Assembly: GCA_951406725.2 (NCBI GenBank)
Contig: OX597838.1
Coordinates: 20,150,001-20,214,000, forward strand
Origin: Octopus vulgaris
Taxonomy: Eukaryota
Length of the DNA: 64,000 nt
Direction: 5' to 3'
Shown here: one piece after another, positions 44,001 through 53,000 of the stretch
How the letters are laid out: the number at the start of each line of letters is the position of its first letter
Position numbering within the stretch: position 1 is the stretch's first letter
Notes under the pieces: model-generated
The model's database searches: none
What the model was told of the DNA's origin: nothing
Seen by the model: only the letters and a program-made list of their open reading frames with translations
Made by a program: the position numbers and the translations under genes

Positions 44001-47000
44001 ATATAGTTGCTTAGTCATCGATACACTGCCATTACAATAAGTTGGTGGTGATAATGTATGAGATATTGACCGTCAGCTTAAGGACAGTAAAGACAGCAAC
44101 TCTTTCCGATGGCTCTAATAGTAATGTATGGATGGCTAAGACGACAATATCATCTCAGATGGTGGGCTAGCAGTGTATGGATGACTAACTCAGCTTCGCA
44201 AATATTTGCATTAACCATCCATACAATGCTATCACTGTCTCAAATAGTTGCTGCCTTAATCATTCTTACTTTGTTCTCATCTTCTCACATAATTGCCGTG
44301 TTAGTCATCTGTACATTGACTGTCATCACCATCATAAATAGTTGCTGTCTTGGCTTATCATCTTTACTATCTCATTGTTCTTTTTAATCTTTACTGTCTC
44401 AACGTAGCCAGAGTGTCATTTTCTTGAGTTTGAGGATATTGAAAATATTTTAATTAAAGGAATTTAAATAGGTGTGGTAAATTATTATAATTACATTACC
44501 AGACATGATATTATCTTTTCTTTTTTTGGATAATTTAAATAAAAACTAAACAAATTGGCAATTAAAAAGGAAGTTACTTTTTTTTTTTTTATTTATTTAT
44601 GAAAATCCTTAAGTTGCGATATCAAGCTTTCTCCTAAAATATTTTTGTTTAATTAAAATCTCCGACTTATGATTGTTGACATTCTTGTAATCTAGCCATA
44701 TTCTTCTTGCAACCAGCATTTTTTCCCTTCTAAATTCGGTAATAAGTATTTTCCCCTGAAAGAATTTGCCTGGATTTTTTTTTTCTTAAATGAAACCTCT
44801 TGTTGTAGAGATTATGCGATATCTACACTAACTTAATCTTGTCCTTAATTTCCTTTCTTTTTAACATGCACCTTAACATATTAAATCTCTTAAACATAAG
44901 TTCACAGAAAGTCATTATAGCTTTAGGAAAAAAACCATTTCACAATTCTTTTGGCCAATATTTTTTTTCCTTCTTAATCTGCTTAAATTGCTTTTGTTGT
45001 TATTTTAAAAAAATTTTTGCTGTAGTGTAAATTTAACAGATTTATTAATTTATTATTACGAATCTCTCTAGATTTAATTCCCTTTTGTTAGCTTTTAACA
45101 CCCTTTAGTGCCTTGACACCTGTTTAGAGGTTTTTTTACCTTTTTGCCCTTCTTTGGACTCTGACCATGTCGCTGTGTTTGTGCTGATTCATCCCTTTTA
45201 TTCCACAGATCACCATCCCCTGAACCAATATATAATCATGAAGGGAAACGGTTAAACACCAGAGATTATCGTACCAGGAAAAAACTGGAAGAAGATCGTC
45301 ATCGGTTGATCCAACAGGCGTTTGAGTTGAATGCTGATTATAAACCCCCAGCAGATTACAAGTAATAATCTGTTTGTCTTACTACAACTAATTAATTTTC
45401 CCATCCTGTAAAATAATTGGTGCTAGGAAGGGCAACCAGCCATAAAAATCCCTGCTAAAATAGACGGAGCTCGGTGCAGTCCTCTGGCTTGCCAGCTCCT
45501 GCCAAGTTGTCTAACCTATGCCAGCATTGAAAATAGATGTTAAATGATGATGGTCTTCATCCTCATAATGATTTACAATGTATATTCTCTGCACCACTTA
45601 TTCTTAGCATTGTTTCCTTTCCAAAAGTTTTCAAAGAGTTGCAGGCATGACTGTGTGGTAAGAAGATTGCTTCCTGACCATAAGGTTCAGGTTTCAGTCC
45701 CAATATGTGGCACCTTGGGCAAGTGGTTTCTACTATAGCCCCGGTCTGACTGAAGCTTTTTGAGCGAATTTGGTAGATGGAAACTGGAAGAAACTTGTGT
45801 ATGTATGTATATATATATGTGTGTGTGTGTGGTTATATGACATTATGTAATAGTTGTAATTCATTTCCAACATTCTGTAAGAACATACCTAGCCATGGGA
45901 GAAATATTTCCTTGCTTGGAAACAGATGAGGGTTAGTGACAAGAAGGCCATCTGTCTCAGCATTTGACAGGTTCTTTATTTCACTGACCCTAGAAAAATG
46001 AAAAGCAAAACCATGTCCTTCCTCTCATACTATTGTTTAAAAGAAAAAAAACAACACAAAAAGCATTGAGCATAGGTGCAGGTATGGCTGTGTGGTAAAT
46101 ATGGAAGAAATAAATATAAAACAGTAATATTATATTATCTATGAAGTAATTAATGTGTTAAGACTCTTATCTCCTAATTTGTTCTCTTTCTCATCCAGGC
46201 CACCAATTGTCCGAGTCAGTGATAAAGTGATGATACCACAAGAATTACATCCTGATATCAATTTTGTTGGTTTGTTAATTGGACCTCGTGGAAACACTTT
46301 GAAAAATCTTGAAAAAGAGGTAATTTTGCTTTCTGAATGTCATGAATATGCTGCTTCTTGTCTACTAATACTGAAAAGTAACAATAAATAATGTAGTTTT
46401 ACAACTTTATAATATCAGAACTTTGCGAAATAAGATCAAATGACATGGTTTCATAAGAAAGTTTAATCTCTTTGCCACAATTTCTTAAAGAGTTGAATAG
46501 CTATTAGTATTAATTAAGAAATCTTCTCCTTCACATTTGTATAAGTATTTTACTCCATGCTCTATTCATTCCATGAATAACTCTATTTTGTAGACTGGTG
46601 CCAAAATTATTATCCGTGGCAAAGGTTCAGTGAAAGAAGGTAAAATTGGAAGGAAAGATGGCCAACCCTTACCTGGAGAGGATGAACCTCTGCATGCCTA
46701 TGTCACTGCACATAATCCAGAAAATGTTAAAAAGGCTGTTGAAAAGGTAAACTTTTTTCTTTTCTTTTTGCAAAGTTCTTTCTCTGTCTGATTGACACCT
46801 GTCCCTGTGTCTCTTTTTGCCTCTTACAGATCTTTGTCTTTTCTCACTTAGCCACCTCTACTCTGTTTCCACTCTGTCCCTTTGCATCCTCTGCTCCCTT
46901 GTCCCTTTGCATCCTCTGCTCTGTCTCCCCTCTTGTCTCTCAACAATTTTTGTCCCCTGCTCTTTTGTTTTCTCTTCATCAACTCGATTGTTGTTCTACT

Positions 47001-50000
47001 CAGTGTTGTAAGCCTGCTGAAGCAATATTAACTGTAGATTAACTCATCATCATCATTTAGCGTCCGCTTTCCATGCTAGCGTGGGTTGGACGGTTCAACT
47101 GGGGTCTGTGAAGCTGGAAGGCTTCATCAGGCCCAGTCAGATCTGGCAGTGTTTCTACGGCTGGATGCCCTTCCTAATGCCAACCACTCCGTGAGTGTAG
47201 TGGGTGCTTTTTACGTGCCACCCGCACAGGTGCCAGACAGAGCTGGCAAACGGCCACGAACAGATGGTGCTTTTACGTGTCACCGGCACGGGGGCCAGGC
47301 GAATCTACAAAGACCTTTCTCGTCAAGTATTTTTATTATTTTTATTTTTCCAATTTATTTTCAGATCAAAGAAATAATCCGCCAAGGAATTGAAGTCCCT
47401 GAAGGACAGAATGACTTGAGACGACAACAGCTTAGGGAACTTGCTCTCCTCAATGGCACACTCCGGGAGAATGATGGTCTTGCGTAAGTAAACATTTTAA
47501 ACTCTGAATTGGTTCAGGATTTTTATTAATTGTTTGGAAAGAAGTTTGTTTCCTCTCACCTTTCATTTTGAGATATTGATTTACCTTTTATTAAATTTCG
47601 TTTTTTATTCAGTAAATTGAAACAGCTGCAGCAGGCACAGACTATTATCACCAACACTATTATATGTTCAATATGTGCAGGTACAGGACATTTAGCTCAG
47701 GACTGCAAACAGAAGAGGTATTTTAGTTATTTTATTATTTTGTGTATGTATGTTATGTAATATATATATATATGTGTTATGTAATGTATGTATGCAATGC
47801 AATGTATGCGATGTGCGTGTGGTGTGTGTAATGTATGCAATGCTATGTATGTATGTAATGTAATGTATGCATGTAATGTAATGTATGCAATGCAATGTAT
47901 GTTATGTGTGTGTGGTGTGTGTAATATGTAATGTATGCAATGCAATGTATGTGATGTGTGTGTGTGTGTGTAATGTATGCAATGTAATGTAATGGATGTG
48001 ATTGTGTGTGTGCACGCGTAGTGTGAGATATGATGTCATTGATTTGTTACGACTTGTGTATTTCTTTGCTGATCTCTTCACATTACCGCTTCTCAACTCT
48101 GAAAACATACATACATACATTACACTCTACACACACACCCTCTTTGACACCCTTCCAGCAACTCCAGGTTTGGTGGAGTTCTCCAGCCCCATAAGACAAT
48201 TCACCTAGGAGGAACCCTCTCCAATGTAAAACCTACAACTTGCTAATCACCGTAGCTCTCTTAGGCCCCTAAGCCATTATAGTCAAACCCCATGTCTTAG
48301 TGAGATACAATTACACAGACCGATTCTCACTTGAAAACTATTAAGCGCAGCCAGGAAGAAAACCCTTGTGGTATCAAAGATCAGTTTATATAACCACTTG
48401 AGGGGTGGGTCACTTTCTCATGATCCTCGTACATAAAGAAACTGCCATCATATATTTGGAGAATATACAGGAAGCCAGTCACTATTTGTGTGGGCGATGT
48501 TAGCAGACAACGTTTTCTATGTTTAAGTTTGAAAGTTGTCATACAGCTATGGTACGACCACGCTTGGAATTCGCATCATCAGTTTGGAACCCCTATCTTG
48601 CTCAGAACATTGACCTCCTGGAATCTGTCCAGAGACGTGCAACCAAACGCATTCCCTCCATCAGACACCTACCATATTCTGAGCGCCTTGTTTCCCTGGG
48701 CATGGATTCACTGAAGCTCTGGCATCTGGCGACGGACTTGGTAAACACCCACAAAATTATCAACCACCTCACCAACAACACTGAACACCTTTTTGATCTC
48801 CATGTGTCCAACACACGTGGACATGCCTACAAAGTCAGAAAACAACACAGCTCCCATGACTTTCGGAAACATTTTTTCACGCTCAGAGTTGCTGAAGCAT
48901 GGAATAAACTGCCTGCGTCAGTTGTTGACTGCCATGACACTGCATCCTTTAAGGCCCTCATGCTTTCCGAAATCCGCCGAAGCTACACCTGATTATATAT
49001 ACACTTTAGATGAGTTGTAGTGCACCTGAGCACTGTACACAATTATTATTATATTATTGGTTTGTTGTTTTCTCTTTCAGACCTGGGGAACCAATCAGAA
49101 TCCAGCAGGGATCACAAGCAGACAGAGCTAAGATGGACAGTGAGGTAAATGTTTCCACTAATAACGACTGTTTCAACTACTTTTTTGTTATGGAGATGTG
49201 GTACTTGATTTCCATTGTAAATTTGATAGCAGCTGATTTAATTTTAAAGCAGTTTTTTTTCCATTTGTTTGTTTTACACTTGTTTTCCTGTTTGCATGGA
49301 TGAGACAAATATATTATCGCAGCATTGTTTTATGACTGGATGTCCTTCCTATCACTTAACTTTTACCTGTTTTCCTAGTAAGGGGAAATGACTCATGGTT
49401 ATTTCACACATCTCCCTAAAGTGTGAAGCTTGGGGAGAAATTGACCAGCAAAGTGACAGTTGTGGAGCACATGTGTAATCACACACACACACACATAGAG
49501 ACTTCTTGAAAACACTTACCCAAAGCACCATGCAGTGGGACTGAACCTGAAACTACTTGATTGGAAAATGAACTTCTTAACCACACAGCCATGCCGGCAC
49601 CAGTGCTTGTAGTATATTTCCACCCACATGTAATGTCCATAGTAAGACACCTGGGCTTGTCCCCCCCCCCATCAAGCTTCAGCCCCTCAACATCTAGCAG
49701 AGAACTATTGCTCCTCCTTTTCCTCTCAAATAGTATCTGCCCCCATTTAGTGAAGGAGGCTTTTTCCTCCTTCCTGTTTTTTGTGCTGTATTCTCACCAA
49801 TACCCTTTGTTGAAATCTTCACATGGGGTAAAAAAAAACATTTTAAAATTTTCATGTAGGGATATGATGTCACTGAACTGTTACGACTTGGGTATTTCAT
49901 TGCTGATCTCTCCAAATTACTGCTTCTCCACTCTGAAAACAATGGATGGGAGGCAATATATCTTCTTGTAGGGATAGGTGTTAGAGGATTTATTGGAACC

Positions 50001-53000
50001 AGGGCACACTTGATGCTCTGGAGTCTTGGACTAGCTGAGAAGGAAACAAAAGATTCTCCTCCTCCTAACATCCATTTCCCCTGCTGGCATGGGTTGTACT
50101 GTTTGATCAGAGCTAGCAAGCTGCACCAGGTTCCAGTCTGTTTTGGCTTGGTTTCCACAGCTGGATGTCTTTCCTAACACCAACTGCTTTACACAGTGTG
50201 CTGGGCTCTTTTTTATGTGGCACCGGCGTAGGTACTAATACATTTTGCTGTCACAGGTGCTTTTTACCTGACACTGGCATGGGTGCAAAGGGCTCTTGCA
50301 GGCCAATCCTCATCAGTAGGGGGAGCGGCATTAACACTTCTACTATGGAGGACAGGCTTTCCTGAGTACAGCAAGCCACCAGATATCTCAGTCCTTAAGG
50401 CAGCGAACTGGCAGAAATGTTAGCACGCCGGATGAAATGCTTCGCGGGATTTTGTCTGCCACTACGTTCTGAGTTCAAATTCCACCGAGGTCGACTTTGC
50501 CTTTCATCCTTTCGGGGTTGATTAAATAAGTACCAGTTACGCACTGGGGTCAATATAATCGACTTAATCCATTTGTCTGTCCTTGTTTGTCCCCTCTGCG
50601 TGTAGCCCCTTGTGGGCAGTAAAGAAATAAGATATCTCAATCCTTTGCCATTTCTTCTGTAAGGTTCAATGTCCTGAGATCATCTTTCAATACTTTGTTC
50701 CATGTCTTCTTGGGTCTTCCTCTTCCAAGAGTTCCATCCACTTTGAGTGATTGGCATGTCTTCACAGAGCTGTCGACATCCATCTGCGTCACATGACCAA
50801 AAGACATTGCCAGAAGATTGTTGGAAGCCACTGAAGCCATTACACCTGTCTCAAGAGAGAGGATGAGTGGTGCAGCAAAAACGAGCATTGAAGATGGTAG
50901 GGACATCCAGTCCAGAGTTGCAACATCGCATTCAACAAAGCTTGTGCTGTTGTATGGGAGTTTTATTATATCCTACATTAGTGGGTAGCCCCCACTAGGC
51001 AGCTGTGGTGTCACTAGTGGAAGGGATCAAAAACCTTCAGAGCTGCTTCCCTACCTGAGATAGTCACTCCTGCATTCGGAGGCAGAGTACAGCAGCACCC
51101 TTAACACACAGGTGTTTACCTTAAAATACTCCACTGCAGTTGAACTCACTTCATATTTGTTTGTGTGTGTGTGTGTGTGTGTTCAATTATTTTCTTTTTG
51201 AAACAACTAATGTCTACATATAATCCTTATTTCTAGTATATGTCACTGATGGCAGAACTTGGTGAAGGACCACCACCACCTCAGAAAACACCTCCACAAC
51301 AGTCAAACATTCAACAGGGCAATATTCAGACATTCAATCGACCACCTTTTCATTCACAACCACCTCCAAATCCAATGGTAAGTCATTATAACTCTTATGT
51401 ATAAAGTTACTGTAACTTCACTGCACACTGGTAATGTAATATCATTTCTTTTTATCAAGGCGGTGATCTGGCAGAAATGTTAGCACGCTGGGCGAAATGC
51501 TTAGCAATATTTCATCTGTCTTTATGTTCTGAGTTCAAATTCCCCTTGAGGTCGAATTTGCCATTCATCCTTTCAGGGTCAATAAATTAAATACCAGTTG
51601 TGTACTGGGGTTGATCTAATTGACTGGTCCCCCAAAATTTCGGGCCTTGTGCCTAGAGTAGAAGAGAATATCTTTTTTTTTTATCACTTGACTTTGAATA
51701 TTATTGAGTATATATTGGAAGATTATGTTGTATAGAATGCTACTAAATGTATGAAAATAGTTTGGATAGTCACCAGGATTGTTCCTGTGTGTGTCATATA
51801 TGTGCAATAGTATATATTTAAGATCTTTACCATATGTTTTCAAATTGGGTACTGGTGGTTGATATTTGAAAATGTTGAACAGACTAGTAGGTGGGCTGTT
51901 AATGTAATTGTACTGTGCACCAGTAGTTAATGCAACGTCTTTACATGGAAATGATATTTACCCTCATCATCATCGTTATTTAATGTCTGCTTTCCATGCT
52001 GGCATGGGTTGGACGGTTTGACTGAGGGCTGCACCAGGCTCCAATCTGATCTGATCTGACAAAGTTCCTAATGCCAACAACTCCAAGAGGGTAGTGGGTG
52101 CCTTTTGCGTGCCACAGTCAGGTGGCACTGGCATCATCCACGATTGAAAATATCAATTTGTCCAGATAGTGAGCATGTTGTGGTTCTTAAATGTCTCCTA
52201 ATGTGTTGATGGAAGTTCTCATTTTTTTTTTTACTCCTTTCAGGCTTTGAATCCTCCATGGCAAGCTACACCTCAACCTCATAAACCTCCTCACATGGTT
52301 ACATCATTCCAAAATCAGCCCCATGCAAATAATGCAGGCCCCCAGCCACAGGGTGTTCCCATACCTCCTAATCATACACAGAGCTCTCAGTATCCTCCTG
52401 GAGTGCCACCTCCGCCACCGCCTCCACCACCTCCACCCAGCTTGTTCTCGAACCCTCAACAGTTGCCACCCTGGCAGCAGGGCATACCCTCAGGACAGAA
52501 CCCACAGACTTCATCAAGTGGTGTTGGTAAGTTTTTTGGTCTTTTTTTTTAAAGATTTTCATTTCTTTTCTTGAGCAACTATGGTTATAGGCGCAGGAGT
52601 GGCTGTGTGGTAAGTAGCTTGTCTACCAACCACATGGTTCCGGGTTCAGTCCCACTGCGTGGCACCCTGGGCAAGTGTCTTCTACTATAGCCTCGGGCCG
52701 ACCAAAGCCTTGTGTGTGGATTTGGTAGACAGAAACTGAAAGAAGCCCGTCGTATATATGTATATATATATATATATATATGCGTGTGTGTGTTTGTGTG
52801 CCTGTGTTTGTCCCCTAGCATTGCTTGACAACCAATGCTGGTGTGTTTATGTCCCCGTTACTTAGCGGTTCGGCAAAAGAGACCGATAGAATAAGTACTG
52901 GGCTTACAAAAGAATAAGTCCCAGGGTCGAGTTGTCGATTAAAAGGCGGTGCTCTAGCATGGCCACAGTCAAATGACTGAAACAAGTAAAAGAATAAAAA

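Follow-up and report, generated by a model that had tools for sequence, protein, structure and literature searches.

In the window, i.e., the whole stretch of 64,000 nt that was analyzed, two short sequences carrying box C/D-like motifs lie in neighboring introns of the same gene, and both contain a stretch complementary to 18S rRNA. This raises the question of what kind of RNA they may encode, where they come from and which rRNA positions they might address. The first-pass annotation had taken them for an atypical, intron-encoded SNORD13-like acetylation guide or an 18S 3′-end chaperone. The reading we favor, tentatively and with less than even confidence, is that of an intronic snoRNA derived from SNORD13 that would have turned into a predicted 2′-O-methylation guide.

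Two copies in the introns of SF1

The two copies and the SF1 exons next to them are located as follows:

48027..48107, + strand: copy 1 of the unit with box C/D-like motifs; SF1 host intron 47718-49080
49861..49941, + strand: copy 2 of the unit with box C/D-like motifs; SF1 host intron 49145-51236
47613..47717, + strand: SF1 exon with the zinc knuckle (contig of a presumed-RNA run; Pfam)
49081..49144, + strand: SF1 exon separating both host introns (contig of a presumed-RNA run)

Pairwise alignment of both copies yielded 72 identical positions out of 81 without any gap (blastn within the window, E 6e-26). Outside the copies, identity drops to 0-5/10 per block, i.e., the flanks are unrelated, and the shared stretch spans from 3 nt 5′ of box C to 5 nt 3′ of the last CUGA. 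Both copies are in sense orientation to SF1 and reside in consecutive introns, one in each, which confirms how the arrangement had been described before. The same holds for the assignment of the host gene to SF1/BBP, since its KH exon matches SF1 from the PDB (E 1e-21) and the Pfam families KH-I_KHDC4-BBP and zf-CCHC match its exons. Intron 47718-49080 is spliced GT..AG in a contig from a sequencing run presumed to be RNA, and the same contig runs on from 49144 into the exon at 51237. The intron that follows the second KH exon of SF1 opens with a long pyrimidine-rich tract (window 46750-46980).

Copy 1 is located 974 nt and copy 2 1296 nt from the respective 3′ splice site; intronic guides usually sit nearer to it than that. 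Judged from contig depth, repeats occupy much of the gap between the copies and the 3′ splice sites. High-copy repeat fragments with very high contig depth are found in both host introns (48541-49052, 48138-48289 and 49480-49600). Additionally, copy 1 (window 47960-48140) is flanked by opposed microsatellite-like tracts, TG-rich on the 5′ and CA-rich on the 3′ side, for which an external duplex of -22 to -27 kcal/mol is predicted; copy 2 can form only a weak one.

Since contigs of the DNA run X2 span each copy with 0-1 differing letters, an assembly error seems an unlikely source of the duplication, provided that this run is independent of the assembly. A tight pattern of 25-32 nt across the antisense element and the middle box had two matches in the 2.8-Gb genome, namely these two copies, and its reversed control had none. 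The many genomic copies that mark a dispersed repeat or transposon fragment are thus not seen, which agrees with the earlier view that the unit is not a dispersed TE-like repeat. A sequence-only model of copies 1 and 2 found no third copy in the window (next match 9.3 bits). A DNA similarity search gave a single genomic place and missed even copy 1, and is therefore to be regarded as insensitive. A pattern scan of metagenomes yielded 120 loci, none of them like the unit beyond the pattern itself (best E 0.039); after dereplication, 84 metagenome loci served as real control sequences. DNA runs under four organism labels were either too similar or too thinly covered for an estimate of divergence, with tables swamped by repeats.

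In each copy, 6-8 nt separate AUGAUGU from the antisense element; a bulge of 3 nt comes next, then 9 nt that pair, one further base and the middle CUGA, and after another 26 nt a second CUGA with 5 nt behind it:

48030..48036, + strand: box C-like AUGAUGU of copy 1; aligns with the SNORD13 inner stem strand, not with the SNORD13 box C
49864..49870, + strand: box C-like AUGAUGU of copy 2
48069..48072, + strand: middle CUGA of copy 1; probably the former SNORD13 box D and at present either D′ or the true terminal D
49903..49906, + strand: middle CUGA of copy 2
48099..48102, + strand: 3′ CUGA (box D) of copy 1; homology stops 5 nt further
49933..49936, + strand: 3′ CUGA (box D) of copy 2
48025..48076, + strand: short form of copy 1; box C and middle CUGA in kink-turn register, 4 bp closing (48025-28 with 48073-76)
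49858..49911, + strand: short form of copy 2; 5 bp closing (49858-62 with 49907-11, one G.U)

The box C-like ATGATGT and box D CTGA that had been named as the bounds of both copies are indeed present. In both copies the C/D consensus is matched at 6/7 positions for box C (RUGAUGA; position 7 deviates) and at 4/4 for box D, and although the middle CUGA fits a D′ box, no C′ box is recognizable after it; the two caveats attached to the first description, a box C ending in U and no clear C′, were therefore justified. UUGCUGA was considered as C′ and rejected, as it leaves no GA-bearing D′. In the kink-turn register no stem closing box C with the last CUGA was found in either copy, whereas the bases before box C of copy 2 pair over 5 bp plus 2 with those after the middle CUGA. 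In terms of folding stability neither copy beats shuffled sequences. SnoBIRD takes 5 nt past box D as the typical end of a snoRNA. The stem closes on the middle CUGA, yet the shared sequence reaches the fifth nt beyond the last CUGA, so that the RNA may be a short form of about 55 nt or an 81-nt form.

One explanation does without a snoRNA and assumes an intronic regulatory element of the SF1 pre-mRNA, i.e., a branch-point decoy for autoregulation. The host gene encodes the branch-point binding protein and both copies contain CUGAU, which is yUnAy-like; however, such motifs number 8 and 21 in the two introns, and the box-delimited ends, the rRNA pairings and the similarity to SNORD13 would be left unexplained, so that we regard a decoy as very improbable.

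The antisense element and its relation to SNORD13

The sequence TGTTACGACTT occurs twice in the window, once per copy, and the inner antisense element of SNORD13 to 18S GUCGUAAC is present in both:

48043..48055, + strand: antisense element of copy 1; 13 bp (one G.U) with 18S 2598-2610; the site is that of the SNORD13 inner element
49879..49889, + strand: antisense element of copy 2; 11 bp with 18S 2598-2608

Counted from the adenosine pair of helix 45, 18S 2598-2608/2610 is equivalent to human 1824-1834/36. The animal's own rRNA served as reference (18S L012 and 28S L014; the target stretches are unchanged in L013 and L015), and the previously proposed complementarity of both copies to the universal SSU stretch near helix 45 holds against it. 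The 18S gene (L012, L013) is about 2640 nt long and thus much longer than the Rfam model with its 1831 positions. The perfect 11-mer shared by the copies is reached by 173/20000 column shuffles, and 76 of 2063 real 62-mers from the window reach at least 11 perfect rRNA pairs on their own; statistical support for the shared match is hence modest, not overwhelming. With 13 nt between its end and the middle CUGA, the element is too far away to be a box+5 guide itself.

A second element, TGATCTCTYC, had been proposed to pair with the 18S end. Its pairing at 9/10 positions was reproduced, its significance was not, because 444 of 5000 column shuffles equal it. Its letters are those of the middle CUGA and of the strand pairing to the bases that precede box C. 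The notion of two SNORD13-type elements in swapped order was therefore abandoned, the second one being at chance level and overlapping a CUGA box.

Searches of the window against Rfam at curated cut-offs gave no match. The lowest E-value match of the region, at E 0.066, was U13 (RF01210), so that the suggested check with this model returned a sub-cut-off match on copy 1 (22.6 bits against a cut-off of 46) and none on copy 2. Two further candidates were discarded, both below the Rfam cut-off: the alignment with SNORD2 skips 14 model positions, and the reported target of TtnuCD21 is U6. Searching the genome with the U13 model at E ≤10 gave 14 loci, of which four had E <0.01. Two of these loci are full length with the 5′ element, namely L002 (C14:38697440-38697545; 49.9 bits against the cut-off of 46) and L004 (C14:38720190-38720281; 45.1 bits, just below it). 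They are about 23 kb apart on opposite strands and 88% alike, L004 being a diverged paralogue. L003 (C29:3004831-3004928) has no 5′ element and ends at box D, where a short A-rich run follows, and L005 (C29:3604453-3604538) is without the 3′ part and continues into a microsatellite. By eye, L002 is identical to the Octopus sinensis SNORD13 in the supplement of PMC9226516.

The question whether a canonical U13 exists elsewhere is thus answered by L002 and L004 on another contig, and because a canonical SNORD13 with 5′ element exists there, the unit in the SF1 introns is not this animal's SNORD13, nor is it needed as its acetylation guide. A 5′ antisense element upstream of box C was not found, the candidates forming weak, broken duplexes (-8.5 and -5.3 kcal/mol for copies 1 and 2, as opposed to -16.8 for L002). 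According to folds and alignments, the strands of the SNORD13 inner stems II and III are either missing or serve as box C. Of the initial proposal of a SNORD13-like acetylation guide, the link to SNORD13 therefore stands, given the likely descent and the similarity of the flanks, whereas the two-element guide does not.

The explanation closest to this proposal would be a miniature, single-element SNORD13 paralogue that aids NAT10 at the helix-45 cytidine, or an 18S 3′-end chaperone. It would be consistent with the likely SNORD13 descent, with the use of the same 18S site and with the closed kink-turn register of the short form, and fly SNORD13 directs acetylation with one element. Against it stand the weak substitutes for the 5′ element, the chance level of the second element, the presence of canonical genes and the missing inner stems (in human SNORD13, changes of stem III abolished expression or rescue); moreover, the conserved 31 nt at the 3′ end would be left unexplained. 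Therefore, we consider such a paralogue or chaperone rather improbable.

Evidence for descent comes from the sequence around the element. With the element and CUGA excluded, the 25 nt upstream plus the 18 nt after the middle CUGA were aligned with L002, and none of 5000 shuffles with box C fixed and none of the 84 controls reached either copy; here and below, flank and segment lengths were chosen after the match was seen. For the upstream 25 nt of copy 1 only 1, 2 and 5 of 5000 box-C-fixed shuffles were as good against L002, L003 and L004, respectively; for copy 2, it was 71, 30 and 279. For the 18 nt after the middle CUGA, copy 2 against the 3′ flank of L002 was equaled by 3-5/3000 shuffles and beat all 3000 window segments, and copy 1 was equaled by 65-71/3000 shuffles. 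L004 shows this post-box similarity weakly and L003, which stops at box D, not at all. The stretch concerned in copy 2 is:

49907..49919, + strand: stretch resembling the 3′ flank of L002 (alignment)

Copy 1 aligns with L004 without gaps at 23/33 identical positions, with transitions making up 8 of the 10 mismatches. Upstream of the element it matches L004 at 11/21 nt, while the 11-12 nt element is intact, an intactness to be read in light of the fact that this element was the basis for picking the unit. No similarity to SNORD13 was found by alignment in the stretch between the element and the middle CUGA. A profile built from the genome's own three SNORD13 copies had four matches in the window, none of them at copy 1 or 2, and a SNORD13-type pattern search of the genome returned three SNORD13 loci and copy 1, with the reversed control also giving three matches. 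As the sequence to either side of the element is similar to SNORD13 of the same genome, the copies probably descend from the 3′ half of that gene; as the profile search was negative, this common descent is to be called likely rather than certain. If substitutions or a 6-nt deletion turned the inner stem strand of SNORD13 into the box C-like motif, as the alignments suggest, this would explain the U at its last position.

The unit might also be a dead SNORD13 fragment, 5′-truncated, decayed and locally duplicated, with new boxes and guides that arose by chance. Truncated SNORD13 copies do occur in this genome (L003 and L005), the mismatches to SNORD13 are mainly transitions and each copy is mismatched in one predicted guide. 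Nevertheless, homology stops sharply at box-typical distances with unrelated flanks beyond, the element on which the unit was picked is intact next to an upstream stretch that in copy 1 differs much from L004, and there are two box-adjacent rRNA matches at a chance level of about 0.1-1%. A dead fragment thus appears unlikely.

Predicted guides next to the CUGA boxes

The first-pass annotation had overlooked candidate guides directly before both CUGA boxes, and these point to methylation:

48059..48067, + strand: predicted 18S guide of copy 1; 9 pairs (6 Watson-Crick, 3 G.U) with 18S 2588-2596; box+5 C (48064) opposite G2591
49893..49901, + strand: predicted 18S guide of copy 2; mismatch at box-4 (49899)
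49923..49932, + strand: predicted box D guide of copy 2; 10/10 Watson-Crick with 28S 1969-1978; D+5 target G1973
48089..48098, + strand: predicted box D guide of copy 1; mismatch at D-4 (48095)

The 9-nt guide to 18S (box-2 to box-10) pairs one base away from the site of the antisense element, and among 7523 rRNA positions no other register reaches the observed summed score. Using a scoring that was chosen after the match was seen, 225 of 50000 shuffles reach the score of copy 1, 279 that of copy 2 and 44 both. The whole duplex from box C to CUGA is not more stable than that of shuffles (50/84 and 21/84 reach it). The predicted target G2591 is equivalent to human 1817, seven bases from the decoding adenosines. 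A pattern for a canonical guide to G2591 elsewhere in the genome gave three matches compared to four for its control.

For the guide before the last CUGA, the perfect 10 bp of copy 2 with 28S are equaled by 179/20000 shuffles, and no other box C...CUGA candidate in the 64-kb window has at least 10 perfect box-adjacent pairs. At least 10 pairs directly before D or D′ are thus present in copy 2 on 28S and absent in copy 1, and the 18S guide has nine pairs including G.U in copy 1 and one mismatch in copy 2. We take human ~2430 to be the equivalent of 28S G1973. For the stretch around this position, Table S4 of PMC11014333, in the part covering six model species, holds no confident site. No box-adjacent match scoring at least 7.5 was found on U2 and U6. 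A match of the D guide to the 3′ end of 5.8S was set aside for its mismatch at D-4 in both copies.

Among the nine differences between the copies, four are unpaired, three weaken the 18S pairing of copy 2, one breaks the 28S pairing of copy 1 and one changes C-G to U.G. The better 18S pairing is found in copy 1 and the intact 28S guide in copy 2, which hints at a split of duties, with numbers too small to test.

Regarding the predicted 18S mark, Table S4 of PMC11014333 lists, in the part consulted, no ribose methylation at the equivalent of 1817 for fly, human, yeast, Xenopus, Arabidopsis and Dictyostelium. Position 2151 of Leishmania 18S is listed as methylated. Leishmania A2158 and m62A2184 correspond to human 1824 and 1850; because of this offset of 334, Leishmania 2151 corresponds to human 1817, provided that there is no indel in those 7 nt. 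On the record found, a methyl mark at the predicted 18S G is thus limited to trypanosomatids. The Leishmania guide for 2151 has a C at D-5, the same register as the C at box+5 in the copies, and in the trypanosomatid guides for both SSU 2151 and SSU 2140 UACGAC is located shortly after box C (both from PMC13487219). In the four trypanosomatid versions listed, this UACGAC could pair with the 18S GUCGUA stretch that the antisense element of the copies also addresses.

Since the trypanosomatid guides carry UACGAC as well, such an element can arise without SNORD13 ancestry, and the copies may be seen as ordinary, unrelated C/D methylation guides, with the likeness to SNORD13 due to convergence on the same 18S site plus chance. 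That no Rfam family matches at its cut-off and that the profile of the genome's own SNORD13 missed both copies would fit. It is the similarity to the L002 flank on both sides of the element, beyond the needs of rRNA pairing, that speaks against an unrelated guide and lets us deem it improbable.

The favored reading and known systems

For the favored reading of a SNORD13-derived methylation guide, the following course may be envisaged. Box C and the 5′ element of a SNORD13 copy would have disappeared, a strand of an internal stem would have become the new box C-like motif, the old box D would have persisted as the middle CUGA and the 3′ flank would have acquired a second CUGA, before the finished unit was copied into the neighboring SF1 intron. 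After splicing, the RNA would be trimmed from the SF1 intron and bound by C/D proteins, to act as a guide for fibrillarin. By way of extra base-pairing, the inherited antisense element would then dock the RNA on helix 44 of 18S, at its 3′ strand. G2591 would come to lie at box+5 through the 9 nt that precede the middle CUGA, and 28S G1973 would be addressed by the guide in front of the last CUGA. Extra pairing beside short guides is reported to lift methylation in yeast up to five-fold (van Nues 2011, PMC3116282). What is observed comprises the duplicated unit with its boxes, the pairings as worked out on paper and a canonical SNORD13 at another locus; ancestry, expression, RNA ends and modification of the unit we infer. 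That the complete sequence of events applies, i.e., a new snoRNA born in SF1 introns from the back half of SNORD13, switched to the methylation of a helix-44 G and with copies that split 18S and 28S targets, seems rather unlikely.

If true, this would be a traceable change of chemistry of a guide RNA, from acetylation to methylation, by reuse of SNORD13 parts, and would predict an animal rRNA mark beside the decoding site that is absent in six model species. The reading yields two single-nucleotide predictions, 18S G2591 and 28S G1973. Should the RNA be dead or an ordinary guide, what is left is routine annotation, either of a mollusc snoRNA not listed so far or of a SNORD13 fragment. A published report of SF1 as snoRNA host in molluscs or of a SNORD13-derived methylation guide was not found in a search outside which most subscription papers lie, which is weak evidence of novelty; the name SF1 does not occur in the three texts that were screened for it.

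Besides the papers cited above and below, the literature consulted includes PMC9670809, PMC5464676, PMC12309372, PMC7668251, PMC3273799 and PMC5693986. Drosophila snoRNA:CD42 (Me18S-G1952; Table S6 of PMC11014333) is a C/D RNA of about 70 nt that is listed as expressed and was once predicted to act on the same 18S stretch. It differs as an orphan with an unconfirmed predicted site and Uhg5 as host, and the likeness is one of description only. The C/D guides with extra base-pairing likewise combine a short guide with a second complementary stretch beside the target and include intronic duplication (van Nues 2011, PMC3116282), whereas in the SF1 introns the extra element is longer and stronger than the guide and there is no recognizable C′.

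The trypanosomatid RNAs LM20Cs1C3/TB8Cs1C1 (SSU Gm2151 plus an LSU site; PMC13487219) address the equivalent of the G that is the predicted 18S target of the unit, in the same box+5 register, and share with the unit the double 18S/28S guide and UACGAC shortly after box C. In contrast to the G.U-rich 9-mer at the middle box found here, their SSU guide forms a long Watson-Crick duplex at box D, and they have a clear C′ and another LSU target; the likeness concerns features and not sequence homology.

The closest system is SNORD13/U13 (RF01210, clan CL00081), including yeast snR45 and fly Or-CD1; the copies share its inner antisense element against the 18S stretch that precedes helix 45. As in SNORD13, a CUGA follows the element, after 13-15 nt in the copies and 19-21 nt in SNORD13, and the flanks of the copies resemble the genome's own SNORD13. 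Unlike SNORD13, the copies are without the 5′ element, the original box C and the inner stems, span 43 nt instead of ~85 from box C to the middle CUGA, add a 3′ segment with a second CUGA and do not reach the cut-off of 46 bits (22.6 for copy 1). By its defining features the unit is therefore not a member of the SNORD13 family, but likely a descendant of it.
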